Positions 9,222 to 61,497 of a DNA stretch of 64,000 nt are shown in pieces. Position 1 is the first letter of the stretch. The number at the start of each line of letters is the position of its first letter. Below the pieces are notes generated by a model. That model did no database searches. It saw only the letters and a program-made list of their open reading frames with translations, and was not told where the DNA came from. Source of the DNA: a virus; IMG/VR virus record IMGVR_UViG_3300048838_001252, positions 1-64,000 of that record; one strand, given 5' to 3'. The position numbers and the translations under genes were made by a program.

Positions 9222-9386
9222 AAAGTTTATACTGTTTTTTTGTTTATCGTGTATTTTCTCAATTTCCTCATTTTCTTTATTAAGTAAAAATAGAAAATGT
9301 CGTCTGCGATATATCGGTAGATTTTCTATATAATCTGCTTGAAACTTAGCGTGTTTGGTCAATATATATATCTCTTCGTTGACCAT
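9207..9386 (-). CDS. Small baseplate-hub/tail assembly chaperone (gp51-like), 59 aa; probably also the -1 frameshift extension of the upstream gene
   Basis: Below the ORF-track cut-off: MVNEEIYILTKHAKFQADYIENLPIYRRRHFLFLLNKENEEIEK...; EIY.L.....F.....E.LP...R pattern. Confidence 0.7.
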   Translation of the reverse strand: MVNEEIYILTKHAKFQADYIENLPIYRRRHFLFLLNKENEEIEKIHDKQKNSINFRPGK

Positions 9387-9403
9387 TTTTTTGTATTCAC
9401 CCG

Positions 9404-10321
9404 CTAAGTGTTTGGGAAAAAAAAATCCAGACCGAGAGATAAATACGCATCAAACTTATATCCATCTTTGGCTTGAAATTCGTATTTCATGTCAATATCA
9501 GGACTTACTTCCAAGATTTTTCTACGAATGGTTACCGCATCCAAAGCTGGCATTGCATCTACAAATTTATCAATATATGACCTATCTGTTTTTTCATTTA
9601 TTGCAACAATATGTGCCTTGAGTTTCATGGTATTATAATCGCTGTATTCATTACCATATGCTTCTTTAATAGATTCGGCTTTTTTAAATAACTGAGCATC
9701 TTCACCAGAAGTTAACAACCTGAAAGTCACTAACTTTTTCCTCATTGGTATTTCTACGGTAAATAAGCCATTTGCGTTTGGTTTTTCGTTTACCTCTTTA
9801 TATCTCAATTTAAGTAAATCTACTGTTGATTGAAACTTAACTCCGGTTCTGGGGTCTGTTACTTCTACACTATAATCAGCACCATAACTACTGGTACGAA
9901 GAAAGAGAATAATTGCATTTCTATCTCCATTTAATAGTTCATTTGCATTAATACCCGGAGTTTTTATTTTTCTTTTTAATAAAATATTAAGAATTTCACC
10001 ACTATCAATTAATGAAGGTGTTGTTAAAAGGTCTTCATCTCTACTTGTCATGTATTCAACATCGACTTCTGAAATACCGTGTGCATAAAATAAACCCTTT
10101 GAAGGTAATTGAACAATTTCGTATGAAGTCATTAAATCCGGGTCAGTTTCCCTTGACATCATTTTTTCATATTCTTCTGGATTAAAAACAGGTGCTTTTG
10201 GAATTGTATGACTTGTTGCTGATTGAATGTTTTCACCTGAAGCATCACCAGTACCTTCTTTAAATTTCTTGATTACATCCGAAATATTTTCTTTTGGCGG
10301 TAAATTACCCTTTTCTCCCAT
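9404..10321 (-). CDS. Baseplate hub/tail assembly chaperone (T4 gp26-like)
   Basis: LPSKG.FY...MT.RDEDLL...LR..SYG..Y and C-terminal GLDFF. Confidence 0.75.
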   Translation of the reverse strand: MGEKGNLPPKENISDVIKKFKEGTGDASGENIQSATSHTIPKAPVFNPEEYEKMMSRETDPDLMTSYEIVQLPSKGLFYAHGISEVDVEYMTSRDEDLLTTPSLIDSGEILNILLKRKIKTPGINANELLNGDRNAIILFLRTSSYGADYSVEVTDPRTGVKFQSTVDLLKLRYKEVNEKPNANGLFTVEIPMRKKLVTFRLLTSGEDAQLFKKAESIKEAYGNEYSDYNTMKLKAHIVAINEKTDRSYIDKFVDAMPALDAVTIRRKILEVSPDIDMKYEFQAKDGYKFDAYLSLGLDFFFPNT

Positions 10322-10478
10322 TTTATAAAATTTTATACTTTATTATTATTTTTTCATAAATACTGAGAAAAATATTTTATACATATTCAAGATTTTTAAA
10401 TAAAGTCCGTATTACCATATGTAATTGATTATAATTTAAAAATAAAAATTAGTTAAAGTATTACACTAAATAAAATTT

Positions 10479-11351
10479 ATGGCAAAAAGGGATAGATTCC
10501 AAGAGGAAAAAGAATTTGTAGAGTTGACTTCGGTAAACAGTGGGGAACAGATATCAAAAATAAAATCAGAAATAAGTAAACTTTTACCAAATGATATAAA
10601 AATTATAGCAAAAAACGATAGCCAGAAAAAATTAATAAATTCAATAAAAAATAATGAAATCACGATTTGTGCAGGTCCTGCCGGGACTGGAAAGACTTTT
10701 GTTGCGATGGCATATGCCTTGAGTTTATTAAGAAAAAACACAAACAGATATAAGAAAATTTATTTGGTTAAATCTGTAACAACACTAAAGGGAGAAGAAA
10801 TTGGATTTTTAAAGGGCGACCTAAAAGAAAAGATTGAACCCTTTATGTGGAGTTTTTATATTAATATGGAAAAACTATTGCTGGATTCTACAATTAAAGC
10901 ACTTATTGATAAGGACATCATTAGACCCTTTCCTCTTGCATATATGAGAGGTGCAAGTCTTGATGATTGTATAATCATTGCTGATGAAATGCAGAATGTC
11001 ACACTTGATAATTCCAGAACATTACTAACGAGAATCGGTAGTAATTCCAAGTTGATATTACTTGGAGATATCAATCAAATTGACATGAAAAACAAAAGTG
11101 AGAGTTCTTTGGAAATATTGCTTGAACTTTTTGATGATGTTGACAATATGGGAGTTATTAAAATGAATGAGGAAGATACAAATGTCAGAAACCCATTGAT
11201 TACAATTATTGAAAACAAATATAAAGAACTATCTGTGACAACATCCGGGACTTCAAGAAATAATAAAACCAATAGAATTTTATTAAATGAAAATATAAAG
11301 AAAACTGAACCCGATTATCAAAACATAGGAAGGGCAGCAAAATTTGAATAA
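10479..11351 (+). CDS. phoH: PhoH-like ATPase
   Basis: GPAGTGKT, IGFLKG, YMRG, IIADEMQN, LLTRIG, GDINQID motifs. Confidence 0.93.
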   Translation: MAKRDRFQEEKEFVELTSVNSGEQISKIKSEISKLLPNDIKIIAKNDSQKKLINSIKNNEITICAGPAGTGKTFVAMAYALSLLRKNTNRYKKIYLVKSVTTLKGEEIGFLKGDLKEKIEPFMWSFYINMEKLLLDSTIKALIDKDIIRPFPLAYMRGASLDDCIIIADEMQNVTLDNSRTLLTRIGSNSKLILLGDINQIDMKNKSESSLEILLELFDDVDNMGVIKMNEEDTNVRNPLITIIENKYKELSVTTSGTSRNNKTNRILLNENIKKTEPDYQNIGRAAKFE

Positions 11352-11352
11352 C

Positions 11353-11634
11353 ATGGAAAGTAAGATTTTAGTAATATATATAGGTGTTTTCGGAATTCGT
11401 AGTGAAGATATTACTGATTACACACAAAAAGTTTCAAAAAAAATTATACCCTCAACTTTTGAGGGGGAAATTATTGTAATTCCGGTACATTCTCCAGATA
11501 CAAGAATAGAATGTATTAATCCAAAATACATTACCGATGCCGATTTAATTAAAGAGCATACCGAAATGATGAAAAAATTACAGGAAGAACTTCACAATGA
11601 GTTGAAGGTATTAAAAGAAAATAAAAATGAGTAA
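11353..11634 (+). CDS. Small protein with a portal-like peptide motif
   Basis: LVIYIGVFGIRSEDITDYTQKV resembles this genome's portal segment KVFKIDVGNIDEDDIEDYIYKV; ATG at 11353. Confidence 0.55.
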   Translation: MESKILVIYIGVFGIRSEDITDYTQKVSKKIIPSTFEGEIIVIPVHSPDTRIECINPKYITDADLIKEHTEMMKKLQEELHNELKVLKENKNE

Positions 11635-30641: not shown

Positions 30642-31034
30642 ATGAGATATAATTGGTCATTAAGAAGATTTTGGTGGTCTTGGTTAAAACAAGATTATAA
30701 AAAACTTTTTTATAAAATCCTGTATGGATGGAAAATGGGTGCATTTGATGGTACAATGTTGCCAGATACTGGAAAGGGGAAATATGTTTCGGTTTATCGA
30801 AAAGGCGATATTATCCAGATTAAACACGAAAGTGGATATGAAGATTTACAATTTGATGAAATCAGAATCATCCCGTATCAACCCAATCATGGTGTAATGG
30901 TTGAAAGATGGAAAGACGGTAAAATGTATAATAGACATCATCTTGATATTAAACAATTAAGTAAAAGCATAATATATGCTTCAAATGTTGAGGCATTAGC
31001 AAGTAAAAAGAAAAATAATGGAAATCAGATTTAA
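30642..31034 (+). CDS. Hypothetical protein
   Basis: 130-aa ORF in the operon. Confidence 0.55.
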   Translation: MRYNWSLRRFWWSWLKQDYKKLFYKILYGWKMGAFDGTMLPDTGKGKYVSVYRKGDIIQIKHESGYEDLQFDEIRIIPYQPNHGVMVERWKDGKMYNRHHLDIKQLSKSIIYASNVEALASKKKNNGNQI

Positions 31035-31494
31035 AAAATTAATACCGGAAGCAAAAACACCATACAAAGCCATTGATATTGACGCTGGTTTTGATTTATT
31101 TGCGACAACAATTGATGAAAATGAGAATTTCATTCAATACGGAACTGGAATTGCCGTTGAAATACCTGAAGGGTATGTTGGATTAGTGTTTCCCAGAAGT
31201 TCAGTCACCAAATATGATTTGATGCTTAAAAACGGTGTTGGTGTAATTGATGCATCATATCGGGGAGAAATAATGTGTAGATTCACACCAATTATCAATA
31301 ATAATATCAAGGACATTGTGATTGACGAACGTGGTTTTGATTTCATGTTTGATGAAAATAAACGCTACAATATTGGTGACCGTGTGGCACAAATAGTATT
31401 CATGGAAATTCCAAAAATAACATTAGTTGAAGCACAAGAACTATCAGATACTGAACGTGGTGATGGTGGCTTCGGGTCAACTGGTAGTAAATAA
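31018..31494 (+). CDS. dut: dUTPase (trimeric)
   Basis: AGFDL, PRSS, GVIDASYRGEI, GDRVAQ and RGDGGFGSTG motifs. Confidence 0.96.
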   Translation: MEIRFKKLIPEAKTPYKAIDIDAGFDLFATTIDENENFIQYGTGIAVEIPEGYVGLVFPRSSVTKYDLMLKNGVGVIDASYRGEIMCRFTPIINNNIKDIVIDERGFDFMFDENKRYNIGDRVAQIVFMEIPKITLVEAQELSDTERGDGGFGSTGSK

Positions 31495-31522: not shown

Positions 31523-31726
31523 ATGAAGGGTACAACTGGAATCAGAATTAGAAGAGAAAGTGCAAGAAAAGCACTTGAAGCACAATTGGTGCGTGGCACA
31601 AAGCCAGAAAAAATAAATGGTAAGACTACCAGTAACATGGTCGCACTTACAGATGGTGATAAAAAACGTATTGAACGTGAAATCGAGACATTGAGTAAGT
31701 CAAAGAATAAAACTGTATTGACGTAA
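31523..31726 (+). CDS. Small basic hypothetical protein
   Basis: ATG at 31523; stop overlaps the thyA start (TAATG). Confidence 0.55.
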   Translation: MKGTTGIRIRRESARKALEAQLVRGTKPEKINGKTTSNMVALTDGDKKRIEREIETLSKSKNKTVLT

Positions 31727-32784
31727 TGAAACAATATCTGGACTTATTACAAAACATCGTTGATAACGGTGTGGAAAAGGAAAGTGGTAGAGCAAATATG
31801 CCAAATACCATAGGTATATCACACGGTGTGATTAAAATGGATTTACAAGAAGGATTTCCACTGCTAACCACAAAGAAAATGTACTGGAAAGGCATTGTAC
31901 ATGAACTTCTTTGGTTTCTCAGAGGTGATACAAACATTAAATATCTTGTTGATAACAACGTGAACATCTGGAATGGTGATGCTTATCGCTGGTATTTGAA
32001 ATGGTGGGAAGAAGAAGGTAAAGATGTTATCGGCAATAGAAAATGCGATTCAATTGAAGAATTTATCACAGAAGTTAAACAAAATCGTGCCCTTTACCCA
32101 TTTCCGTGGAAAGGACATGGAGAATATATGATAGGTGATTTAGGTAAAGTCTATGGTTATCAATGGCGTAATCAGAATGGTGTTGACCAAATAAAAGAGG
32201 TTATCGAAGGTTTGAAGTCAAATCCTTATAGCAGGTATCATATAATTGATGCGTGGCAGAAATCAGATTTTAAGGAAATGGCACTTCCACCATGTCACCT
32301 TCTTTATCAGTTTATTGTAAGACCTTTGAGTCAAAAAGAAAGAGTTGAATGGTATTTCAATGAATTTAAGCCATTATTACCTCTTATTAAAAAAGATGTT
32401 GATATGGTATTAAATAATACTAATGTTCCGAAATTCTATCTCGACTTGAACATGTATCAAAGGTCGGTAGATACACCGCTTGGTTGTCCATATAATTTAG
32501 CGTCAATGTCATTACTATTAATGATATTTGCGAAAGCAAGTAATATGATTGCGGGTGTTGCTACTTGGATTGGTGGTGATACACATATTTATGTTAATCA
32601 ACTCGATGGAGTTAATGAACAATTAAAAAGAGAACCATATAAGTTACCTCAAATGGTAATAAATAAGGAGTTAAATTCACTTGAAGATATTTTATTATTA
32701 ACTATTGATGATTTTGAGTTAGTTGATTATGTCTCGCACCCAACAATTAAATTCGAATTATCTGTGGGTTTAAAAAAGGTGTAG
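31726..32784 (+). CDS. thyA: Thymidylate synthase
   Basis: MKQYLDL, FPLLTTK, ELLWFL.G.TN, MALPPCH, YQRS.D..LG.PYN and GDTHIY motifs. Confidence 0.97.
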   Translation: MKQYLDLLQNIVDNGVEKESGRANMPNTIGISHGVIKMDLQEGFPLLTTKKMYWKGIVHELLWFLRGDTNIKYLVDNNVNIWNGDAYRWYLKWWEEEGKDVIGNRKCDSIEEFITEVKQNRALYPFPWKGHGEYMIGDLGKVYGYQWRNQNGVDQIKEVIEGLKSNPYSRYHIIDAWQKSDFKEMALPPCHLLYQFIVRPLSQKERVEWYFNEFKPLLPLIKKDVDMVLNNTNVPKFYLDLNMYQRSVDTPLGCPYNLASMSLLLMIFAKASNMIAGVATWIGGDTHIYVNQLDGVNEQLKREPYKLPQMVINKELNSLEDILLLTIDDFELVDYVSHPTIKFELSVGLKKV

Positions 32785-32835: not shown

Positions 32836-33567
32836 ATGACTGGAATATATAAAATCAGAAATAAAATAAACAATAAATGTTATTATGGTTCAGCAAAAAA
32901 CATTAAAAGACGATGGGCGAGACATAAATCTCAACTAAAACATAACAGACATGAGAATATTGTCTTGCAGAGGGCATGGAATAAATATGGTGAAGAAAAT
33001 TTTGAATTTGTAGTAGTTGAGATATGTGATGAAAATAATTTATTAATTTCTGAACAAAATTATTTAGATTTAAAACCAGAATATAATATTGGTAGACAAG
33101 CATCTGGTGGTGATAATTTAACTAATCACCCAAATCGAAATGACATTATTTGTGAAAGAAAAGTTAGTAATAGAAGAAGAATTGATGAAATGTCTGATAA
33201 TGATAGAAAGAGAATATGGTCAAGACCTAAAGAAAATAATGGAAAATGGAGTGGAGGTGTTTCAATCAAATATTGTGTCTGTGGTAAACAAATTGCGTCC
33301 GAACATAAATATTGTATTGAATGTCTACCAAGAAATGGTGAAAATAATCCATTTTATAATAAACATCATACCGAAAAAACTAAAAGAGAACTATCTGAAC
33401 TACGAAAAGGAAAGTATAATGGTACACAAAATATTAAATTTATGATTGATGATGTCGAATACTTTTCTCTCGGTGATGCTCATATTAAATTAGGTACACC
33501 TATAGCAACAATATTATGGAGATTAAAATCAAAAAATAAGAAATTTGAAAATTATAAATATTTGTAA
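32836..33567 (+). mobile_element. Free-standing GIY-YIG homing endonuclease with NUMOD3-type motif
   Basis: GIYKIRN..N.KCYYGS...RW..H...L....H.N..LQRAWNKYG...F...E...YN; NPFYNKHHTEKTK..LS; CxC-CxxC. Confidence 0.9.
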
Positions 33568-33569
33568 TA

Positions 33570-34103
33570 ATGAACGATTTTAAAACAGGTGGCTATTGCC
33601 CCACGTGCTTACATGCAACTTCAGGATGTACTTGTATGAAAGATTACTGGAATATTGTTGGAAATAATGAAATAAATAAGGTGTTCAAAATACATGTTGG
33701 TGATATTTCAGAAGATGAAAAAGAAAAAATCATAAAAAAATGGAAATCATCGGGATTATTAGAAGGTCTTACTGATAATTTTGATGAAAATATCGCCAGA
33801 GTCTTTGATTTTAATAAACGACAAATTATAATGGATGAAAGATTAAAAGATGTTAACCTCTTAGATGAATTAAGAGAAACAATGGAAGACGTTGAAATTC
33901 AACTTTTCGAAGATGAGAAACGTTGGGGTGATACGTGGAAAGAACGTGGTTTGGTTTATAATGGAATGAATCAGGAAACACGTTGGTTTTACAAAATGCA
34001 AGACTATTTCCAAGATTTTATGGATAATGGCACACCAATTCCTTGGGATAAGGTTATTGGTGAAGCACATATTGCCAAAGTAAGAGAAAAGAAACTTAAA
34101 TAA
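33570..34103 (+). CDS. Mosaic protein with a Cys cluster, a portal-like peptide and a major-capsid N-terminal-like peptide
   Basis: CPTC..CTC; KVFKIHVGDISEDE; KWKSSGLLEGLTDNFDENIARVF. Confidence 0.65.
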   Translation: MNDFKTGGYCPTCLHATSGCTCMKDYWNIVGNNEINKVFKIHVGDISEDEKEKIIKKWKSSGLLEGLTDNFDENIARVFDFNKRQIIMDERLKDVNLLDELRETMEDVEIQLFEDEKRWGDTWKERGLVYNGMNQETRWFYKMQDYFQDFMDNGTPIPWDKVIGEAHIAKVREKKLK

Positions 34104-34612: not shown

Positions 34613-34636
34613 AAAAGGGAGTGTTAACTCCCTTTT
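34611..34636. terminator. Bidirectional terminator
   Basis: AAAAGGGAGT-gtta-ACTCCCTTTT. Confidence 0.8.
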
Positions 34637-39150: not shown

Positions 39151-40806
39151 TTACTGTAAGTCACCAATTCCGAAAGTCTGAAGACCATCGCAGAAAATTC
39201 TACCGTAGTAACGGTTAAGAACCATTTTCTTTGCATAACGAGTCATGATACCACGAATCGGAGTGAAATCGAATGGGTTGTACATAACCGGAGTCAACTG
39301 CATCGGTACGTAAGGAGCGTAAATGTAACCAGTCTCAAGGATTGATGTACCTTTATGTCCAATAAGTACGGTGTTAGCAGGTGCGTATGGGTCACGATAA
39401 ACGATGTAACGTCCACTAAGAGTACCAATTTTTTCAATACCCATGTTATACTTATCCTGTTCAGGACTTGCATTACTTACGTGGAAGTACTCAAGGTCAT
39501 CGAATACTGCACTAACTTCAGGAGATACAACTACCCATGATGCACCACCACGAAGAGTTGCTTTGTGAATCTGTGCTGAAATCTGGTTGATTTTTGTAAC
39601 CAATGTCTGATTCCAGTCTTTCTGTGTACCGTAGTATGCAGTAGATTGTCTACGAAGACCATTATAGTCCCAACGAGCAGTCCATGCAGCACCTCTACGA
39701 AGGTCACGAAGAATTTCACGGTCGATTTCAGCAGCCATTTGTTCTGAAAGAAGAGCAGTTAACTCAGCTTCAGCGTCAATGTTGTGGAATGCACTAACGT
39801 CCTGTGCAAGTTCTGGTGTCCACATAGCACGCATTTTACGTGTTTCAACAGATACTGTTACTTGGTCAAGTACGAAAGTTACTTCAGCCATTCTTGAATC
39901 TTCTTCAAGGTCAGAGTATACTCTGTAAGTTACAGAGAAAGTAGGTGTGCTTGCAGCACTCATTGCTTGATAACCATCAGTTCCAGCGTACTGTAAGTCA
40001 GCGATAAGAACGATTTGACCATCTGAGTTAACAATTGGCTGTCCGTATTTCTGAACTTTTACGTTGAAAGGAATAGCATCACCAGCAGCGATACCTTCAA
40101 AACCAGCAGGTGCAGTTAATGCAACATCTGCAAATACTTTCAATCCAGCAAGGAAAGTTTCAGTATCCATAGGAACACCAGCAGGACCGATTAATTTACC
40201 CTGTGAATCGGTAGCGAAACCACCAACTGTTAAGGTAACGAATTTATCAGTACCAAGTACAAATGTAGCTGCTGTAGTAGCACCTGTGATTACGTCAATC
40301 TGACCCCTTGAACGGTCGAACAATGAAGTACCTTCTTCACCATATTCAGTTGCATAGAATGCATCGTATAATGAACGTTCTTCAAATCCGGTTCTGTTAG
40401 TGTTAGTTGCTGCGTTCTGGTATGCACCATTTGGTGATGTATGAATTCCAGTTTCAGCATCAGTTACTCTAACGCTTGCTTTAGGGTTGATGTAGTATAA
40501 TTTACCAATAGGTAAATTGAGAGCCTGTACAGAAACGATGTCGTTTGCTAAAAGTTTAGCAAATACCCTACGAATAACAGGGAATGCAACAGTTTCAAAC
40601 TGACCTGACGCTGCAGAATCAGTAGATTCGTTAATCATGTGTGAAAGCTGGTTTTCGAATAACTGCGCACAGTTTTCTTTAACATTACCTTCAAGTCCTT
40701 CAAGAAGACCAATCTTTTCCCACCTGTTGGTGGTTATTTCTCTTTGCTCACGAAGTTGTTTTAATCCAATATTACCAACTTCTGCGCTTTCCATTAAAAA
40801 TCCCAT
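39151..40806 (-). CDS. Major capsid protein (T4 gp23-like)
   Basis: W...GLLEGL, P.IRRVF..L.A.DIVSVQ, RK.RA.WT.ELAQD..A.H.IDAEAEL, YAPYVP, P..GIMTRY. Confidence 0.97.
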   Translation of the reverse strand: MGFLMESAEVGNIGLKQLREQREITTNRWEKIGLLEGLEGNVKENCAQLFENQLSHMINESTDSAASGQFETVAFPVIRRVFAKLLANDIVSVQALNLPIGKLYYINPKASVRVTDAETGIHTSPNGAYQNAATNTNRTGFEERSLYDAFYATEYGEEGTSLFDRSRGQIDVITGATTAATFVLGTDKFVTLTVGGFATDSQGKLIGPAGVPMDTETFLAGLKVFADVALTAPAGFEGIAAGDAIPFNVKVQKYGQPIVNSDGQIVLIADLQYAGTDGYQAMSAASTPTFSVTYRVYSDLEEDSRMAEVTFVLDQVTVSVETRKMRAMWTPELAQDVSAFHNIDAEAELTALLSEQMAAEIDREILRDLRRGAAWTARWDYNGLRRQSTAYYGTQKDWNQTLVTKINQISAQIHKATLRGGASWVVVSPEVSAVFDDLEYFHVSNASPEQDKYNMGIEKIGTLSGRYIVYRDPYAPANTVLIGHKGTSILETGYIYAPYVPMQLTPVMYNPFDFTPIRGIMTRYAKKMVLNRYYGRIFCDGLQTFGIGDLQ

Positions 40807-40827: not shown

Positions 40828-42384
40828 TTAAAGATTATTTTTTTTGCCTCTATGTTCTACGTATTCAATAAGTTTTTTCATTTTCTGAATATGTTTATCG
40901 TTTTCGTAGGCTGTTTTTTCCACTACTTCGTCAAGTTTTTGTTTTGAAGACGGTTGAATTGAGGCGTTCACCTTTTCTTCAATACTTTCAGTTAAAGTTT
41001 TTTTGCTTTCTTTCATTTCTGTAAGAACTGCTTTATACTTCTTCTGTGATTCAGTAATGCTATCAACTTTTTTAAATTCGTTGATAATTTTAATTTTATC
41101 TTCCTGAGTCAATGCCAATTCTTCATTTACCAAAAGGTTATTTACATGTGCCAAATTGGTATTAAAAACTGCCATCTCCTTCAATTGATTACGATACTTG
41201 TCAAGTGCGGTCTTATAGCTTTCAACTAAAGTTCCAACGGATTCCTTGTACTTCTTTGTTTCGTTCATTTTCTTGGTCAACTTCTTGTTTTCCTCAAGTA
41301 AACTTTCAAACTTTTTCTCAGTACTTTCGTTTTGTGGATTGTTTACACTACCATAACGTTTGTGACGCTGTGGTGCGAAATCTTTTCCCGGTAAATGGTC
41401 ACCAGCTACATGTTTGCTTGTACTGTGAGCCATACCAGATGCTTCATCAACAGATTGCTCTGCAGGTGCACCCAATACTGCTTCAATATCAGCATCAGTA
41501 ATTGGTTCTTCATCAATCATCTGAGTGGTAGGACCACCATTTTCACGACCGGGGATACTTTGTTTTCCACCTTGGTTCTTCTGTTCTTCTACAGGTAATT
41601 CTTCGTCAATCATTTGAGTGGTCGGACCACCATTTTCACGACCCGGAATACTCTGTTTTCCACCTTGATTTTTCTGCTCTTCAACGCCAAACCCTTTAAT
41701 CATTTCATCGAGTTTGTTTCTCATGTTAACAAGTTCTGAATATGGGTCACTATCTTTAGCTTCTTCCATAGCATTCATCCCGTTAAGGTTTTCCATGCTT
41801 GCAATTTCGCTTTCAATTTCTTCCATTGTTAGAACTTCGTCTTCATCATCAGCATTTTCCAAAGCAGAACCGACACTATCAACATCGAGTTCTGTTACAT
41901 CAAATTCTTCAGAAATGTTTGAAATCGGTTTTCCTGAACTTGGATTTACTTTATCGGTGAAGATGTTACCTTTCTCGGTTTCACCTTTTCCCTGATTTGG
42001 CGTATCGCTTTCGATATCAGCCATAAATTCTTTCTCACGTTCTTCTTTAACGGTTTCAAGTCCTTTTGCTTTTTCATCAAAGGGTTTTCCTTCTCCAGCA
42101 TTTTCTTTTACAACCTTTTTGGTCTCTTTAGTTTGATTCTTCATAACAGATTCTTTATTTGTTTCAACATCATCTGATTCCTCAGATTCTTTCTTTACAT
42201 CCAATTTTTTATAGGATTCTTTTTTTGATTTATTTTTATTTATTTCTTCCTTTAATAAGCTACTAAACTTTTCAGGAAATTCTTCGGCTAATTTCTTTTT
42301 AGCATTAGTTTCCGCAGCCTCCTTGATTGCATTGTAATCAGTTAAGGCTTCTTTAATAATCGATGATTTTTTATCGTCTTTCAT
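40828..42384 (-). CDS. Prohead core/scaffolding protein
   Basis: Acidic, coiled-coil C-terminus, many (L/I/V)xE sites; lies between the protease and MCP genes. Confidence 0.75.
   Translation of the reverse strand: MKDDKKSSIIKEALTDYNAIKEAAETNAKKKLAEEFPEKFSSLLKEEINKNKSKKESYKKLDVKKESEESDDVETNKESVMKNQTKETKKVVKENAGEGKPFDEKAKGLETVKEEREKEFMADIESDTPNQGKGETEKGNIFTDKVNPSSGKPISNISEEFDVTELDVDSVGSALENADDEDEVLTMEEIESEIASMENLNGMNAMEEAKDSDPYSELVNMRNKLDEMIKGFGVEEQKNQGGKQSIPGRENGGPTTQMIDEELPVEEQKNQGGKQSIPGRENGGPTTQMIDEEPITDADIEAVLGAPAEQSVDEASGMAHSTSKHVAGDHLPGKDFAPQRHKRYGSVNNPQNESTEKKFESLLEENKKLTKKMNETKKYKESVGTLVESYKTALDKYRNQLKEMAVFNTNLAHVNNLLVNEELALTQEDKIKIINEFKKVDSITESQKKYKAVLTEMKESKKTLTESIEEKVNASIQPSSKQKLDEVVEKTAYENDKHIQKMKKLIEYVEHRGKKNNL
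41506..41685 (-). repeat. Tandem duplication (93-nt period) in the scaffold gene
   Basis: VEEQKNQGGKQSIPGRENGGPTTQMIDEE occurs twice, with synonymous differences. Confidence 0.9.
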
Positions 42385-42511: not shown

Positions 42512-43213
42512 TTATAATAAGAATCGATTTACGGCTGTTATTATTTTACTGTCCTCTTCTTTTAAATAAATACCGTTCTTGTTCACATAGTTCTCACCGA
42601 ATCCAACGCTATTTTGTTTTTCTGGAAATAAATATGCACCGGGAGTACTTGGCGTAGCTACAAGGTCGAAACCGATTAATTCAAAATCATTCTGAACCAT
42701 GTTTTCACCATTAACTTCTTTGAGTGTACCAACACCACGACTGGAAATACCTAACTTAATTTTATTTTGTAGGTACAATACAATCTTATCACCAACTACT
42801 GAAACAACACCATATTTTATGTATCCCGGAGAAACAATTAATTTCAACTGACCATATAAAACATTTTCTTGCTCATTACTTCCCCACCACATCTTTGTAA
42901 TCATGTGAGAGATATTTTGAAGCGATATGATACTACTATCTGGGTGGTCGGCTTCTGAAACAGCACTGTTTGTTTTAACCAATTCCTGATAAACGTCAAC
43001 TTGTGGTATTAAAACGTCTTTGGGGTAGATACGACCGTTTTTGTTTTTAACGCCCCATTTTTGTAAAATACAGTTAACTAATACAGGTTGTCCGGGTTTT
43101 AACTCAAAACTTTCGGTTAAAATATCCTTGTTGATTTCACTATTAATATATCCAGCATCATGTTCAATCAGAATTCCGAATCCAACATCACCTGCTTGTA
43201 ATATCTTGCTCAT
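42512..43213 (-). CDS. Prohead protease (T4 gp21-like)
   Basis: KNKNGRIYP, E.DHP, SH, LGISSRGVG and FDLVATPS motifs. Confidence 0.93.
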   Translation of the reverse strand: MSKILQAGDVGFGILIEHDAGYINSEINKDILTESFELKPGQPVLVNCILQKWGVKNKNGRIYPKDVLIPQVDVYQELVKTNSAVSEADHPDSSIISLQNISHMITKMWWGSNEQENVLYGQLKLIVSPGYIKYGVVSVVGDKIVLYLQNKIKLGISSRGVGTLKEVNGENMVQNDFELIGFDLVATPSTPGAYLFPEKQNSVGFGENYVNKNGIYLKEEDSKIITAVNRFLL

Positions 43214-50343: not shown

Positions 50344-52350
50344 TTAGTTTTCATCTAAATCAATGGATTCAAGTGTTTCGAAATCAATATCTTCTGCTTC
50401 GTTTGTTCTTTGAATTGCATTAATACTTTCCGAACTTTTTAGTAATTCATCGATTTCATTTATCATGTTTTGTGCATTTTGGTTCAATTTATCGTTGATT
50501 TGATTATTTTCATTGATAATTCTCTTCTGTTTGCTAATCTTTTTTCTTTCTGGTTCTTGACTATAACCAAAAACCATTTTTTCTACATGATTACTATATT
50601 CTTCATCTGTCATTTTACTGCTTTCTGCTAATGCTGGTGGCATTTCTCCACCACCCATTCCACCACCACCTAATGGTGCTGCTCCTGCTCCCGGAGGTGG
50701 CATTTCTCCACCTGCTGCTGGTGGTGCTGGTGGCATTCCACCACCTTCAGGTGGCATTCCACCTTGTTCTGTTCCACCCGTATCTGCAGCAACTGGCATA
50801 CCCTCAACAGGCTCACCGAATCTTTTATCAATGTCGGTAAATAAACCGGATTTCTTAATTGTAACTGGAGAATCAACAAGTTCTTGCATAACAACCTTTT
50901 CCATTTTCTGTTGTTTCAAGTCTTCAACAATTTCTCTGTCACTCATGTTGAATACCATACGTTTTGCAGTTGTATGTGACATTGCAGCAATACCGCCTTC
51001 AGCACGTGTTAATTCAGTATATGTTTGTGCTTTCTCACGTAATAATTCTGATTTGAGTAATTCCTGTTGTGTAGAAGGATTTGTAAGCGTCAATGTAAAA
51101 CTATTCAAGTCCTCACCACTATAACCCAACAAGAATAAATGTATCATTGCCATTTTATTGAGTTCCTGTATCATGGCTTGCTGAATACGATTAACCTTTT
51201 TTGCAAATCTGATATCATATTGTGCCATGTTTTTGCCAGCACCTGCAGCATCCTGAAAACTCAAGAATGGTTTTGGAATACCAAGTCCGATGAATAGATT
51301 ATCTCTAAGATATTCAATATCTTGAATCTGGTCGAGATTTGATGCACCCGCTAAAGTATCAATACCTGTTTGAGTATTTGCGTTTCTTACGGGTAGGAAA
51401 TAATCTTCATCGTTTCCCAATATATTGAAACGGTAATCAATTTGACCATCAGTGGGAGACACCTGTGCAATCTTTTTAAACTTGGTAGCAACTTTGTAAA
51501 TATAATCCTCAATATCGTCTTCATCTATGTTTCCAACGTCAATTTTAAAAACCTTCTTTTCACCTGCACGAATAATACGGTAGGTAAGCATAGCGTCTTC
51601 TGCCATTACTAATTGACGGAAAACTCTTCTGACTTTATTTAAAACCGATGAACCATATGGCAAGTACTTATCATCTCCAAGAAGTCTGAAGTGAGCAATT
51701 TCGAAAGTATTAAATTCGTCACCAGTCATTCTTTCTTTAAACTTCACAATTGGTTTACCGTTTTGTATTCTTTCGAGTCTTTCAATTTCATAATTAACCA
51801 ATTGTTTTACGTGTGTAATACCTTTCTTACGTTCACCATAGAGTAATACAAAATTATCACCATATTTCACAAGATTTCTTACCCAGAACGGTAAGTTTAC
51901 ATTCACGTTAACAGTATCGAAGAAAAATTCTTCAAGTAATGTTTTAATCCTTTCCTTATTCGAATATATGTTAAGCATTTTACCATTTAAACCAATGGTG
52001 GTTGCTTCTTCCATAAATAAATCCAATGCAGAAGAAATAATTGGGTAATATTCCATACCCTCATAGTCGATATATGCTGGAAGTCTGGCAGCTTCATATT
52101 GTAATGCCTTTTGAAAACCCCTATCGGTTGTCCTGAAGAATTTATTCTGAAGTTCTTTCTTCTGTTCTAACTCCAAACCCTTCCTATGTATTTCTTCGGG
52201 AGTATTACCTTTTATAATAACCTTTGGTTGTTTTGCTATTGGAGTTGATTGTGATACGGCAGGTTGTGAATCCTGAAAACCAAAACCATCCAAATTCAAC
52301 ATTTTGTTGAGTTGTTGATATAATGTGCCTTTTTGTTCCTTTTCAGCCAT
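50344..52350 (-). CDS. Portal protein (T4 gp20-like)
   Basis: ME..P.ISSALD, AHFRL, PYG.S.L, EDAML.YRI.RA.E..VFKIDVGN, EDYFLP and D.RFAK motifs. Confidence 0.96.
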   Translation of the reverse strand: MAEKEQKGTLYQQLNKMLNLDGFGFQDSQPAVSQSTPIAKQPKVIIKGNTPEEIHRKGLELEQKKELQNKFFRTTDRGFQKALQYEAARLPAYIDYEGMEYYPIISSALDLFMEEATTIGLNGKMLNIYSNKERIKTLLEEFFFDTVNVNVNLPFWVRNLVKYGDNFVLLYGERKKGITHVKQLVNYEIERLERIQNGKPIVKFKERMTGDEFNTFEIAHFRLLGDDKYLPYGSSVLNKVRRVFRQLVMAEDAMLTYRIIRAGEKKVFKIDVGNIDEDDIEDYIYKVATKFKKIAQVSPTDGQIDYRFNILGNDEDYFLPVRNANTQTGIDTLAGASNLDQIQDIEYLRDNLFIGLGIPKPFLSFQDAAGAGKNMAQYDIRFAKKVNRIQQAMIQELNKMAMIHLFLLGYSGEDLNSFTLTLTNPSTQQELLKSELLREKAQTYTELTRAEGGIAAMSHTTAKRMVFNMSDREIVEDLKQQKMEKVVMQELVDSPVTIKKSGLFTDIDKRFGEPVEGMPVAADTGGTEQGGMPPEGGGMPPAPPAAGGEMPPPGAGAAPLGGGGMGGGEMPPALAESSKMTDEEYSNHVEKMVFGYSQEPERKKISKQKRIINENNQINDKLNQNAQNMINEIDELLKSSESINAIQRTNEAEDIDFETLESIDLDEN

Positions 52351-52426: not shown

Positions 52427-54478
52427 TTATTTCTTTTTCTTATCTAATCCATCAAATAACCATGAATGTGCAAGATATGGATTCATCGATGATGGACTAT
52501 TGGGGGAAATCATTGGTTTATTTTTTATGTCTTGTTTTCTTCCTATTTCAGAAATATCGTTATTGGTAATGATGGCATTAAGCATTTTTTCAGTAACACC
52601 CTTACTTTGCTTAAATCTTGCCATATCAAAATTCAAAACATATAATCCAATTGACAATCCCATTATACTATCATCGTGAAAACTACGTTTATGGTCAGCC
52701 ACACGATTTCCGGGAATCGTGACGAATGTTTTTAATTCATTCAATAATCTTACTGACCTAATAATCACGTCTTCCAAATGCACTGCTCTTTGCATTTCAA
52801 GAAGCACCGAAGCACGGTTATTTCCAATAAAGAATCCGGGAATCAGGTCAACATTTACGACAGAACCATCTGCCATTGTTTTCTGACCCTTTTTAATATA
52901 TCCTTGTAACCTATCTCTTGAAGGTTTATGTGTAACTTCTGCAAAGTGAACACTATCGTACCCAAATTCAAGTAATTTTTCCACGCTTTGCACACCATAA
53001 CCACCAGTTATATCAACAACCGCATATGCATTATTATATCGTTTTCCATATTGATATGCAATTTCTGCAAGCATTTGTGGTGTTACTTTTCCATAGTATT
53101 CCGCAACCTGTTCAACTTTATGTCTTCTGATTTTAACTTTTTTTATTTTATCGCCCTTTTTAATAACCTTTTCTTCAATTACTTCAACAGTTTTCAACAT
53201 ATTCAATGTTGAATTGTCATCACCGTGTCCCGGAGACGCATCGAGTGCTATAATGTAATCTTCTCCCGGTAATGGGTCTTCAAAAATCCACATATTTAAG
53301 TCGGTGTATTCTTGACGAATAGGTGTACGTACTTCATTTTCCTGAATACGTTTAAGATATTCTTCAGCGATAAAGTTATCACCAGAACCCAAGAATGAAC
53401 ATAAAAGTTCTTGCGCAATTTTACGCATATCTCCGTTTGCATCTCTAACTTGTTCTTCAAACCAAGGACTGCTGGCTTCCCAACCGTCTTCCATCATTTG
53501 AATTCTGGTTTTTTTATCCCAATTTTGGTCAATTAATTTCTTTTCGTTTTCTTTACCTTTATTTTTCAACCAGCACAAATCTTTATTATATCTTGGGTCA
53601 TTATACCACCATAGTTCAACCGCTTTAAAGTTATTTTCGTTTCTTCGTGCACCATCAAATGTTTTGTAGAATACTGCATCAAGACCGGAAGGAGTACTAA
53701 CCATAATCGCAGCACCACCAGTTTGAAGTGTTGGTTTCGCTGCAGTCCAGAATTTATCTCCCTTTTCTGTCCATGCAGTTTCGTCCCAGAAAATAAGTGT
53801 TGGTGTCATACCACGAAGACCTTTAGAAGAGAAAGCACCTAATCTTGAATTATTATCGTAAATTTTTAATTTTTGTGTGTCCTTGAAATTACCAACAGCT
53901 TCTCTACCAGTTTTTGGTCTAAGCCAATCCGGGCAACCTTCAATAAATAAAACCACATCACTCATAATTTCATCACGTGCGGTTTCAAGTTTATCTGCAA
54001 CAATTGCAACCTGTCTGTTCGGGTTGAACATCACATACCATGCTATATATGCACAAGTTGTCGTGGATATACCTGCCTGACGATATTTGTTGGCAACCAC
54101 AAATCTATTATCTCGATATGTTTGGATTAATTCTTTCTGAAAATCAAAAAGTTTGAATGGTACAATCATACCAGCCATACCCTGTGTCTGGTCAAAAATT
54201 GTTAAATATGTCTCAATAAAATATACGGGGTCTGTTGCACACCTAATGATTTCCTGCTTTTGTTCTGTGATTGTTAATTCACTGGCTCTCTTAGCAATAC
54301 CGTCTTTAGTAACAACAATTGGTTCAATCTTAGCAGATTGTTTTCTGAGTTCTGCAGCTAATTTCCTAATCTGTTCCTTTTCTTTTTCCCTCTGAACATC
54401 AATGGGTATTACTGGAACGTGTTCTGGAAATATATCTTCGATTTCTTTCTTTTCAACCTTTTCTTTATCAGTACTCAT
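52427..54478 (-). CDS. Terminase large subunit (T4 gp17-like)
   Basis: DPVYF, F.LFDFQ, KYRQAGIST, DETAW, STP.G, YIIALD...G.G.D.S and HDD..M motifs. Confidence 0.96.
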   Translation of the reverse strand: MSTDKEKVEKKEIEDIFPEHVPVIPIDVQREKEKEQIRKLAAELRKQSAKIEPIVVTKDGIAKRASELTITEQKQEIIRCATDPVYFIETYLTIFDQTQGMAGMIVPFKLFDFQKELIQTYRDNRFVVANKYRQAGISTTTCAYIAWYVMFNPNRQVAIVADKLETARDEIMSDVVLFIEGCPDWLRPKTGREAVGNFKDTQKLKIYDNNSRLGAFSSKGLRGMTPTLIFWDETAWTEKGDKFWTAAKPTLQTGGAAIMVSTPSGLDAVFYKTFDGARRNENNFKAVELWWYNDPRYNKDLCWLKNKGKENEKKLIDQNWDKKTRIQMMEDGWEASSPWFEEQVRDANGDMRKIAQELLCSFLGSGDNFIAEEYLKRIQENEVRTPIRQEYTDLNMWIFEDPLPGEDYIIALDASPGHGDDNSTLNMLKTVEVIEEKVIKKGDKIKKVKIRRHKVEQVAEYYGKVTPQMLAEIAYQYGKRYNNAYAVVDITGGYGVQSVEKLLEFGYDSVHFAEVTHKPSRDRLQGYIKKGQKTMADGSVVNVDLIPGFFIGNNRASVLLEMQRAVHLEDVIIRSVRLLNELKTFVTIPGNRVADHKRSFHDDSIMGLSIGLYVLNFDMARFKQSKGVTEKMLNAIITNNDISEIGRKQDIKNKPMISPNSPSSMNPYLAHSWLFDGLDKKKK

Positions 54479-59408: not shown

Positions 59409-59753
59409 TTAATTAATATATGTGGTTAATTCGTATTTACCACTTTCCATTCGATAAATTATAATTTGTAGTGCTTTTCTCTGCTCCTTACCGTCTTTAT
59501 ATATCGCAATACTACCACGTTTAGTTTCACCATATCCAACACCACCAGTACCAAATTGATTAAATAATTCGTCATTGTCAACAGTAAATCCTCTACTTTC
59601 AGCCATTTGAACTGCTGCTTCAAGTGCTGCGCTTAATGTTTCAAAATATGTTTCTGGTTTAAATGTTGAAATTTCATTTAAATTATCTTTAAATGATTTA
59701 TCAACTTTTGACATAACCTCAAAAAGTCTCTGTTTATTATCAACTTTTTTCAT
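59409..59753 (-). CDS. Hypothetical protein with RLFEVM...LNE leader
   Basis: N-terminus shared with the two upstream genes. Confidence 0.7.
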   Translation of the reverse strand: MKKVDNKQRLFEVMSKVDKSFKDNLNEISTFKPETYFETLSAALEAAVQMAESRGFTVDNDELFNQFGTGGVGYGETKRGSIAIYKDGKEQRKALQIIIYRMESGKYELTTYIN

Positions 59754-59770
59754 AAAGAATTTTTTAAACT

Positions 59771-60205
59771 TTATTTTCCAACTTTTGCAATATCAACAAC
59801 TGGAATTTTTGATTTTTTTTCTTCTTCGGCAGGTGCTTCATCATTTTCTTCAGCTTCTGGTTCGTCATCATCCATTTTACGACTTGAACCTTCTTCTTCG
59901 CCTTCTTTTTCTTCTTCTTCACCGTGCATCCAACCATAAACATCATTAAGATGCTCTTTAGCTATAACAATTTTATCTTGCACCCATGAAGGTAAATCAC
60001 CTTCAGGTAATCCTTCATATGCTTTTTTTGCTAAATCAACAAGTTCTTCTAATTTGGCTTTATATGATGCACCTTCTTTTCCGTGTTCCTGTGGTTCTAC
60101 AGAAATTTCTTCTTTTTCTTCAAACTCTTCATTTAAATTAGGTTTAAATGTTTTGTCGAGTCTACCCATGACTTCGAAAAGTCTTACTTTTGTATTTTTT
60201 TTCAT
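59771..60205 (-). CDS. Acidic head-region protein with RLFEVM...LNE leader
   Basis: Shared leader; LPSWVQDKI..A...L motif; late promoter at 60219-60228. Confidence 0.7.
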   Translation of the reverse strand: MKKNTKVRLFEVMGRLDKTFKPNLNEEFEEKEEISVEPQEHGKEGASYKAKLEELVDLAKKAYEGLPEGDLPSWVQDKIVIAKEHLNDVYGWMHGEEEEKEGEEEGSSRKMDDDEPEAEENDEAPAEEEKKSKIPVVDIAKVGK

Positions 60206-60233
60206 GTTTTTATTTTTCTATAAATACTTATAA

Positions 60234-61424
60234 TTAATGTATTAACAAATATACCCCAAGTACATCTTTTCGATGTGCTGCAGTATCTGCATCTGAAGGT
60301 GTTACGATAACATTCCAAAGATTTGTTCCTTGCTCTGGTTTTTTCAACATTTCGTCAGAAGATATAATTGTATTTCTATCAATATCGTAGAATGTTGCCA
60401 TAAAATCTTTTAACTGATTAAGTGCTTCTGGTGATTTGTAACGGTAAATATTTTTATATTCGGGTTTACCTTGTTTCATTACCTGCTCACCCTTTTTATT
60501 TAGGACTGGTTTCTTAATTACATTAATATAGTCTTTAAAGACATGTTTTGGAACAACATCTGCGTGCTTATCTTTTAGTTTGTCTATTAAATGTGTTTCT
60601 GGAGAACCGGGGTCAACCGAGAACCGGAATACAAAATTATCTGGAACATCTGCTTTTTTTGCAGAAGAAACCATTTTTGTATATGCATAATGTAAAACAT
60701 TTGGCGTTCTTCTTGCAATGTCCATAGCTAATTCAAGGTATTTGTCAGAAATAAAATCTCCAGAATCATGCCATCTAACTATTGTCGTTAAACCCTTTTT
60801 TTCATTGTTAATTCTGGCAGTTTCAATTTCATCAATAACTTTATATCTAAACTCATCCCAATGATTTAAAAGAAAATTTAAAATTCTTGATTTGCTCATT
60901 GCAGCATCATTGTACATTACAGACCTACCTTTTTGCTGAAAACAGTAATCTTTACAATGACCAGCGTTTGGGCAAGTATCCACAACTTTAAATTCTTTAT
61001 TTTTTTCGTCAAAGAACAAACCCTTATATGCAGGTAATGAAATTTTTAATATGTTGGTTTTTCCAACCTTATCATTTGTACCTAAAATTGTTAATGGTCT
61101 TTGCGTAAATTCTTGTGCTAATTTTTTATCGTCAATTACGTTTCCACCCATGTCAACAATTTCAATTGTTTTTTTATGAATGTATGGGTCTTCCCTATCA
61201 CGGGGAGCATCACTTTTTCTTTTATCTGTAATTGTTTGTACATCTGCAGGTCTTAATCCAACCCCCTCAATATCTTCTTCAAGATTAGGGGTTTTCGCAA
61301 AACTTTCTAAATCGATGAAATCGCTACCATCAAAACCCGGTGGTAATGAACCAGCTTCGTTTAATTTCATACCTGCGACTCTTTCCATCATTTCAAAAAG
61401 TCGCTTTTTAGTATCCTTTATCAT
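60234..61424 (-). CDS. Gene-product-88-like (radical-SAM-like Cys cluster) protein with RLFEMM...LNE leader
   Basis: TCPNAGHCKDYC, VRWHDSGDF and YAYTK motifs; start moved to ATG 61424 because the promoter at 61441-61449 overlaps the track start. Confidence 0.7.
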   Translation of the reverse strand: MIKDTKKRLFEMMERVAGMKLNEAGSLPPGFDGSDFIDLESFAKTPNLEEDIEGVGLRPADVQTITDKRKSDAPRDREDPYIHKKTIEIVDMGGNVIDDKKLAQEFTQRPLTILGTNDKVGKTNILKISLPAYKGLFFDEKNKEFKVVDTCPNAGHCKDYCFQQKGRSVMYNDAAMSKSRILNFLLNHWDEFRYKVIDEIETARINNEKKGLTTIVRWHDSGDFISDKYLELAMDIARRTPNVLHYAYTKMVSSAKKADVPDNFVFRFSVDPGSPETHLIDKLKDKHADVVPKHVFKDYINVIKKPVLNKKGEQVMKQGKPEYKNIYRYKSPEALNQLKDFMATFYDIDRNTIISSDEMLKKPEQGTNLWNVIVTPSDADTAAHRKDVLGVYLLIH

Positions 61425-61497
61425 TCTGAAATCATTTTTCATAAATACTTCAATATATTCAAATACAAATAGTATTTATATTAAATTCTTGTACAAA

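Follow-up and report, generated by a model that had tools for sequence, protein, structure and literature searches.

In phage T4 the clip of the portal protein gp20 (residues 279-358; family PF07230, structures PDB 3JA7 and 6UZC) juts from the capsid and is the attachment site for the terminase gp17 and the neck protein gp13. Residues 291, 292, 295 and 296 of the clip tip touch gp17, and a gp20 peptide of residues 288-311 binds gp17 and inhibits packaging, as stated in the cited parts of PMC4493910. The N-terminus of the T4 major capsid protein (MCP) gp23 sends fusion proteins to GroEL, and T4 internal proteins bear a capsid targeting sequence, according to the cited parts of PMC3012670. Portal and MCP are also now known triggers of many bacterial immune sensors, and several Avs families sense both (cited sections of bioRxiv 10.64898/2026.01.04.697583). 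DSAD1 of SPbeta-like phages is a structural-protein mimic: it imitates the tail tube protein and blocks the binding pocket of the sensor DSR2 (cited sections of PMC10973363). Here we analyzed a gene that joins pieces resembling a portal clip and an MCP N-terminus in one protein. The open reading frame (ORF), P0001 (33570..34103, + strand, 177 aa), lies in a 64,000-nucleotide stretch (IMG/VR record IMGVR_UViG_3300048838_001252, positions 1 to 64,000), called the window below. The window has a G+C content of 33% and belongs to an 82,445-base contig of an uncultured T4-like phage.

Results

The ORF is a fusion of four modules: a zinc-type knuckle, a portal clip-like "mini-clip", a module resembling the MCP leader, and a conserved three-helix core. 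The knuckle occupies residues 1-22 (33570..33635, +). It is the CxxC-x6-CxC cluster that an earlier note, made from the letters of this DNA, had placed before the two virion-like pieces; its spacing is exactly C10-x2-C13-x6-C20-x-C22, and it is the usual N-terminus of the 124-126 aa forms of the family. The mini-clip (residues 27-57, 33648..33740, +) is supported by similarity, shuffled controls and a permuted unit that recurs in relatives. The leader-like module (W..GLLEGL..N..EN.A..F; residues 50-87, 33717..33830, +) is supported by BLASTP, shuffled controls and a hidden Markov model (HMM) of the module. The core (residues 88-177 from MDERL, 33831..34100, +) is a stand-alone gene after thyA in most relatives.

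The matches to portal and MCP that the earlier note had placed at residues of about 37-56 and 57-80 were both recovered, with somewhat different limits. Residues 37-60 aligned without gaps with residues 266-289 of the phage's portal (window about 51484-51555, -; 13/24 identical), with a BLASTP E of 0.002 in the single comparison with the phage's own portal. Residues 43-80 aligned with MCP residues 10-51 (window about 40654-40779, -; 16/42 identical, one 4-residue gap; BLASTP E 2e-6 against the phage's own MCP). The whole portal clip segment that the mini-clip resembles comprises portal residues 264-315 (51406..51561, -), and the MCP leader that the second module resembles, which we consider a propeptide, comprises MCP residues 10-62 (40621..40779, -).

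We compared the 66-residue middle part of the ORF with all 366 six-frame ORFs of at least 50 aa in the window. The top two non-self matches were MCP (32.7 bits) and portal (26.9 bits), and the next match scored 21.2 bits. When the middle part was shuffled 1000 times, the best match reached at least 32.7 bits in 1/1000 and at least 26.9 bits in 14/1000 cases. The second-best match reached at least 26.9 bits in 0/1000 cases, and the similarity therefore stood up to the shuffled controls that the earlier note had named as a possible refutation. When MCP, portal, TerL, scaffold and protease were compared with the six-frame ORFs of the window by default BLASTP, only self matches were obtained at E up to 0.05.

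Chance resemblance of short acidic or hydrophobic stretches is largely refuted by these results, and we regard it as very improbable. In its favour, the pattern VGD..ED....II of the portal-like stretch also matches FG-GAP-type repeat proteins (5/15 database matches described below, with P0060 as another repeat protein), and the ORF holds no Pfam family. Besides the shuffled controls and the rank of the two matches among the 366 ORFs, it is opposed by homologous modules of relatives that pass the Pfam Portal_T4 cut-off.

Searches with the ORF gave few other matches. No Pfam family was found in the ORF or its parts at E up to 10, and Foldseek of the whole ORF model against PDB returned no match at E up to 0.001. 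There was no tblastn match of the ORF among 50,697 phage records. A scan of viral contigs with the middle part gave 38 pattern matches, 0 of which were confirmed. We gave no weight to a PHROG match of the ORF to "tail assembly chaperone" (E 2.7e-4).

The alignment between the phage's portal and T4 gp20 is ungapped in this region, with portal residue n corresponding to T4 residue n+17. The mimicked portal stretch thus falls on T4 gp20 283-303, which covers the first strand of the clip, its tip and the beginning of helix alpha-6, and it overlaps the gp17-binding peptide 288-311. The tip pattern of the phage's own portal is retained (G-N-I-D-E-D-D in the portal, G-D-I-S-E-D-E in the ORF). The order of the mini-clip is permuted: a strand like portal 306-315 comes first, followed by a strand, tip and helix start like portal 266-286. 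The same permuted unit recurs in P0006, P0049, P0050 and P0057, and may imitate within one chain the sheet formed between portal subunits. In contrast to gp20, the ORF has no stem, wing or crown, and the portal-like sequence makes up only about 30 residues of the 177-aa protein, within a predicted non-structural protein of a non-late operon. It is therefore not a full dodecamer-forming portal. In the ORF model, strands were predicted at 25-30 and 34-44 and a helix at 48-61, with a predicted local distance difference test score (pLDDT) of 53-77. The middle part modelled alone gave a mean pLDDT of 61 and a predicted template modelling score of 0.34.

A separate 93-aa ORF after phoH (11353-11634, +) has an N-terminus weakly like the same portal clip strand and helix (12/30 identical, E 0.023), with no Pfam or PHROG family.

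The match of the phage's MCP to mature T4 gp23 begins at residue 64, and the phage encodes a gp21-type prohead protease (Peptidase_S77, 42515-43213, -). For these reasons the first approximately 60 MCP residues are probably a propeptide. They are almost invariant in the window and in seven related loci (L007, L008, L011, L012, L017, L020 and L029), in which the core is only 63-82% identical, and this points to strong constraint on the MCP leader. The leader-module HMM scored E 7.7e-22 on the ORF and about 4e-20 on MCP N-termini. The ORF module thus shares its pattern with the phage's MCP 10-51; it differs from a gp23-type leader in being internal, at residues 50-87, with the three-helix core and no capsid fold behind it, so it is not the N-terminus of an HK97-fold capsid protein. 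When PDB sequences were searched with the leader-module profile, T4 gp23 and gp24 were not detected at E up to 10. We therefore dropped homology to the GroEL-targeting N-terminus of T4 gp23; the link is by position only.

These correspondences bear on the possibility that the protein modulates or poisons packaging and assembly. The mini-clip would then bind the large terminase, and the leader would bind the partner of the MCP leader (scaffold, protease or chaperonin), either timing the phage's own packaging or interfering with co-infecting relatives. The gp17-binding, packaging-inhibiting peptide of T4 gp20 and the contacts of its tip with gp17 (cited part of PMC4493910), the retained tip pattern, and the GroEL routing of fusions by the T4 gp23 N-terminus (cited part of PMC3012670) are consistent with it, and co-infection is plausible, as many close variants occur in the same metagenomes. 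We predicted the complex of TerL with residues 20-95 in three runs, which gave 0.00, 0.55 and 0.00 against a mark of 0.32 and speak neither for nor against binding. However, conservation would be expected of a protein that regulates the phage's own assembly, and the cassette that carries the modules is sporadic. A poison would also strike the phage's own terminase and its own MCP partner, because the MCP leader is nearly invariant among relatives, and the link to the T4 gp23 N-terminus is only the positional one. We consider such a modulator rather improbable.

We searched 5.8 billion proteins for the family of the ORF and obtained 66 candidates and, from these, 42 relatives, 19 of which were compared in detail. 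The last approximately 90 residues are common to all 19, with 43-91% identity. Eight of the 19 carry a short N-terminus only (P0017, P0026, P0032, P0034, P0038, P0042, P0044, P0046), five are knuckle-core proteins of 124-126 aa (P0009, P0010, P0013, P0018, P0029), and two have other inserts (P0007, P0008). Portal or MCP pieces are present in four (P0005, P0006, P0011, P0015). P0005 has the same architecture as the ORF, and P0006 has the two modules in reversed order before the core. The extension of the core in P0015 corresponds to portal stem and clip (87 columns, E 5.9e-14), and that in P0011 to an internal MCP stretch (residues 395-415, 12/21 identical, E 1e-5).

We also analyzed 31 related loci (25 viral contigs and 6 metagenome contigs). 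The core ORF mostly starts with MDERL in them, and the proposal that the C-terminal domain may start independently at this point thus holds for most relatives. The knuckle was present in 4/31 loci (L003, L025, L010, L019), and a portal/MCP cassette in the core gene in 0/31. The core model consists of three helices (pLDDT approximately 90). Neither Pfam nor PDB sequences gave a match to the core or family profile, and there was no usable protein-atlas match. VIA-align of the core gave at best a weak match, 2p06_B (Z 7.4, root-mean-square deviation 4.9, 84 aligned), and Z 5.0 for the MazG-related 2yxh_B; both Z values are within the range common for helical bundles.

Modules of the two kinds were also found apart from the core. 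An exhaustive phmmer run with the 66-residue part as query against 1.84 billion representatives yielded 15 matches at E up to 0.001; 14 sequences were compared, and P0054 was judged from the table only. Six of the 15 are unrelated repeat proteins, five of them FG-GAP-like (including P0054) and the sixth P0060. The remaining nine are small proteins built of the same modules, without the core. They comprise the leader alone (P0051, 63 aa; P0053, 54 aa; P0058), two or three leaders in tandem (P0059, P0055), the permuted mini-clip alone (P0057), and a knuckle with a whole clip and a stem-helix-like end (P0050; ungapped to portal 265-323, 24/59 identical, E 2e-8). Both modules are joined in P0049, as leader then mini-clip, and in P0052, as whole clip then leader, which is the order seen in the ORF. 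Pfam Portal_T4 (PF07230) scored above its own cut-off of 22.9 bits in four of the ten proteins scanned (P0006 25.8, P0015 31.6, P0050 27.8, P0052 30.0), and P0057 remained under it with 18.5 bits. The earlier note had suggested searching related phages for stand-alone fragments, and leaders such as P0051 and P0053 and the mini-clip P0057 are fragments of this kind. It had also stated that no protein fusing both motifs was known. We likewise found none in print; among sequenced proteins, however, such fusions do exist, with the core (P0005, P0006) and without it (P0049, P0052).

We ran the leader HMM against the six-frame ORFs of the genome and of the 31 loci, 10,426 in total. It matched the ORF, the phage's MCP, the MCP N-termini of seven loci and five small + strand ORFs. 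Among the small + strand leader genes are L003 10225-10581, L010 15492-15965, L006 5750-6010 and L028 2155-2406. In L003/L025, L006 and L010 the leader mini-gene lies directly after a UvrD-type helicase gene, and this slot is empty in the window. Behind the leader, L003 and L010 carry a "RYAFHLSDNGDPDE" domain as cargo, and L028 carries a CxxC..CxxC domain. Leader modules of relatives end in [ILV]-x-E, as the MCP leader does (..MINE|S). Between the L003 and L010 mini-genes the ratio of non-synonymous to synonymous substitution rates was 0.38 in the leader (52 codons) and 0.29 in the cargo (41 codons). These comparisons show two families of small modules, derived from T4-type portal clips and MCP N-termini, that are conserved at the protein level and shuffled between genes. 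Related uncultured phages carry them singly, as tandem copies, in combination, or joined to unrelated small domains, and where the loci are readable the positions of the modules are on the + strand, non-late and accessory.

At 59409-61442 (-) the window encodes three adjacent late proteins with unrelated bodies and a common N-terminal leader, RLFE.M...LNE, which is similar to the latter half of the MCP leader (..QLFENQLSHMINE). The three are candidate protease-cut, capsid-targeted proteins.

A cleavable prohead-targeting leader would account for part of this picture. The module would dock in the assembling prohead in the way of the MCP's own leader, the gp21-type protease would cut it, and the core or cargo would be packed and later injected. 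T4 internal proteins (IPI-III, Alt) are a close parallel, with a portable leader before diverse small cargo, a gp21-type protease, and, in relatives of the ORF, a protease-like motif at the junction of leader and cargo. The T4 capsid targeting sequence is approximately 10 residues long and N-terminal. The ORF leader differs from it, being MCP-derived, approximately 40 residues long and internal, and leaders in tandem or without cargo exist. Three unrelated kinds of cargo behind the leader (the core, the "RYAFHLSDNGDPDE" domain of L003/L010 and the CxxC..CxxC domain of L028), [ILV]-x-E ends like that of the MCP leader, the Peptidase_S77 protease at 42515-43213, the three late proteins at 59409-61442 with their shorter leader, and the T4 precedent (cited part of PMC3012670) argue for such targeting. 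It is opposed by the internal position of the leader in the ORF, where the end reads IIMDE with no clean [IL]-x-E, by the stand-alone and tandem leaders without cargo, by the non-late unit of the ORF, and by the fact that the core of most relatives has no leader. It also leaves the mini-clip and the MCP-internal fragment of P0011 unexplained. We regard targeting as the main rival of the decoy reading discussed below, though an unlikely one.

Upstream of the ORF are dUTPase (31018-31494), thyA (31726-32784) and, directly before the ORF, a GIY-YIG homing endonuclease of I-TevI type (32836-33567, +; GIY-YIG, I-TevI_ZnF and NUMOD3 found). A terminator-like hairpin at 34613-34636 (+) closes the + strand unit that contains the ORF. 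The motif TATTTATA on the coding strand (TATAAATA when read the other way) lies just upstream of many late genes. It has 21 sites on both strands of the window versus 11.2 expected from shuffles, and looks like the late promoter box of the phage. There is no such motif in the right orientation before the ORF. We rejected TATAAATA at 33553 as a late promoter of the ORF, since its orientation is wrong for this gene. From the absence of a correctly oriented late motif together with the terminator at 34613-34636, we conclude that the ORF is in a non-late unit with dUTPase and thyA.

The head genes of the phage are on the opposite strand. They include the MCP gene (39154-40806, -), which matched T4 gp23 structures and whose best identity was 33%, to the MCPs of Microcystis phage Mel-JY01 and Flavobacterium phage immuto, the portal gene (50347-52350, -), which matched T4 gp20, and the TerL gene (683 aa; 52430-54478, -). 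The earlier note had described the gene as part of the nucleotide-metabolism operon and far from the head genes. The operon was confirmed by its position after dUTPase and thyA; the distance was overstated, as the capsid gene is only approximately 5 kb away. Upstream of MCP, the scaffold-like 518-aa protein at 40831-42384 (-) has an exact internal tandem repeat of approximately 30 residues (..EEQKNQGGKQSIPGRENGGPTTQMIDEE.. twice).

The site between thyA and the core varies among phages and within the population. In L009 a core gene lies directly after thyA. In L029 the order is thyA, the same GIY-YIG endonuclease (9276-10004), a stand-alone core, a second core copy and the small membrane protein of the window; the tandem core genes (10007-10566; 94 and 90 aa) include a more divergent second copy. 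We aligned contigs of public runs to the region of the window and obtained its population variants. In one coexisting variant, 177 nt (33653-33829) are swapped for 18 nt with the frame kept (joint 33652->33830), which gives a 124-aa form. Both mimic pieces are in the exchanged segment, and this shows that the two middle modules arrived as one 59-codon in-frame cassette (33653..33829, +). Another variant (joint 33569->33831) has no extension, one (joint 32731->33831) has neither endonuclease nor extension, so that the endonuclease at 32836-33567 is missing from some metagenome variants, and a further one has the knuckle followed by a P0007-type insert. These population forms, four in all when the two joints without extension are taken as one class and a near-identical cassette carrier is included, indicate that the knuckle-core site beside the homing endonuclease is hypervariable. 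A near-identical carrier of the cassette, X2 record 11 from a 2014 microbial-mat run, covers 33564-33856 with 6 other letters in 293 nt. The locus resembles the hyperplastic regions beside free-standing homing endonucleases (I-TevI or seg type) in T4-like genomes, with the endonuclease directly upstream, presence/absence variants and cassette swaps. It differs in that the endonuclease may explain the variability of the site and not portal/MCP cargo kept at the protein level.

Several features suggest that the extension is translated. The 40-nt sequence that precedes M1 is almost identical to the one that precedes the stand-alone core start in L029, and M1 therefore stands at the position of a used start codon. 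The 87 codons of the extension are open, and stop-free windows of 87 codons made up only 0.19% in the shuffled window. Upstream of the ATG at M88 the sequence is still that of stand-alone cores, and a shorter product may also be translated from it. The ORF and P0005 (91% identical) agree throughout residues 1-22 and differ at 8 positions in residues 23-87 and at another 8 in residues 88-177, without any indel or stop; the similar counts indicate that the cassette diverges at the rate of the constrained core.

The codons of the two pieces also bear on their origin. Among residues identical to portal and MCP, identical codons were found at 5/13 and 5/12, respectively, so synonymous sites are randomised, and nucleotide identity was 38/63 and 45/84. 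With so few identical codons and such low nucleotide identity, the pieces are not recent copies of the phage's own genes. Module proteins from other phages (P0050, P0051, P0053, P0057) are more similar to them than the phage's own portal and MCP are. The claim that the peptides mimic this phage's own proteins was thus not upheld in the sense of copying. We also ruled out silent cassettes for gene conversion of MCP or portal, since the pieces and their counterparts agree at just 54-60% of nucleotides and the MCP leader hardly varies. The conclusion that the ORF is a real, selected, modular protein with two virion-derived docking pieces is robust.

The same data are relevant to the view that the cassette is a passenger, recombined into a hypervariable linker beside a homing endonuclease and tolerated there without function. 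The core would then be the working product, and the modules would be selected only in their own mini-genes. The interval between thyA and the core is indeed a hot spot, with the endonuclease present or absent, other small ORFs, the inserts of P0007 and P0008 and the tandem core of L029. The internal ATG at M88 with the upstream letters of stand-alone cores also agrees with this view. In L003, L006 and L010 a leader mini-gene follows the helicase gene; the window has none there, and its module may simply have changed place. On the other side are the 87 open codons (0.19% of shuffled windows), two more carriers with an intact cassette (P0005 and X2 record 11), an amino-acid divergence from P0005 equal to that of the constrained core, and M1 at the start-codon position used in L029. 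We think it quite unlikely that the cassette is idle.

Discussion

The earlier note had read the protein either as a decoy for defences that sense structural proteins or as a modulator or poison of prohead assembly, and our results support its interpretation in part. The reading that we favour, while giving it somewhat less than an even chance, is mimicry with a function in conflict: a decoy that is present ahead of the genuine portal and MCP. Synthesis would take place early or in mid-infection, from the dUTPase-thyA unit. The protein would display two docking surfaces that are otherwise present only late, namely the tip of the portal clip and the MCP leader, and would work by occupying whatever binds those surfaces. 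Of the possible targets, we prefer a host sensor that recognizes portal or MCP to the assembly partners of a relative in co-infection. We favour a conflict function because the modules are accessory, hypervariable and in non-late units, and because the fragments come repeatedly from portal and MCP, also without cargo and in tandem.

DSAD1 is the one precedent that we found for a phage virion-protein mimic that blocks a sensor. The two cases differ, as target and inhibition are demonstrated for DSAD1 (cited part of PMC10973363) and the ORF is known from portal and MCP fragments recognized at the sequence level in one protein. The cited parts of the literature on phage countermeasures, including the November 2026 overview PMC13728456 and with supplementary files set aside, describe no portal- or capsid-fragment decoys.

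Several points weigh against a decoy. Avs recognition is described as shape complementarity across extended interfaces on whole folds (cited part of bioRxiv 10.64898/2026.01.04.697583), and with 20-40 residues the pieces may lack the size needed for competition. The leader before unrelated cargo and the [ILV]-x-E ends fit a targeting leader better. Most relatives are without any extension, even the very close L026 (93% identical in the core). The portal piece is short, the ORF is without any Pfam family, and confidence in the modelled modules is low (pLDDT 53-77, and a mean of 61 when the middle part is modelled by itself). P0052 should be treated with caution, as it is a singleton from a contig of 1616 nt, with no relatives of similar length. 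Finally, protein-based searches detect in-frame fragments only, and the sample of modules is biased accordingly.

A wider form of the decoy reading, which we put forward as a doubtful possibility, is that large T4-like phages keep a shuffled kit of early virion-fragment modules that occupy host sensors before the real proteins are present and so blunt pattern-recognition immunity against portal and capsid proteins, with the ORF as a two-bait decoy. Such a kit might draw on the portal clip, the MCP leader and further MCP segments, either free-standing, as single or tandem copies, or inserted in accessory genes.

Variants of one gene with and without the cassette coexist in the same samples and form a natural experiment. 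If the modules are targeting leaders, a capsid-delivery signal would derive from the capsid protein's own leader, and it would help to find injected proteins in uncultured phages. If they are decoys, phages would be answering pattern recognition with shortened versions of their own conserved components, and the modules would mark the surfaces that are read by sensors or assembly partners.

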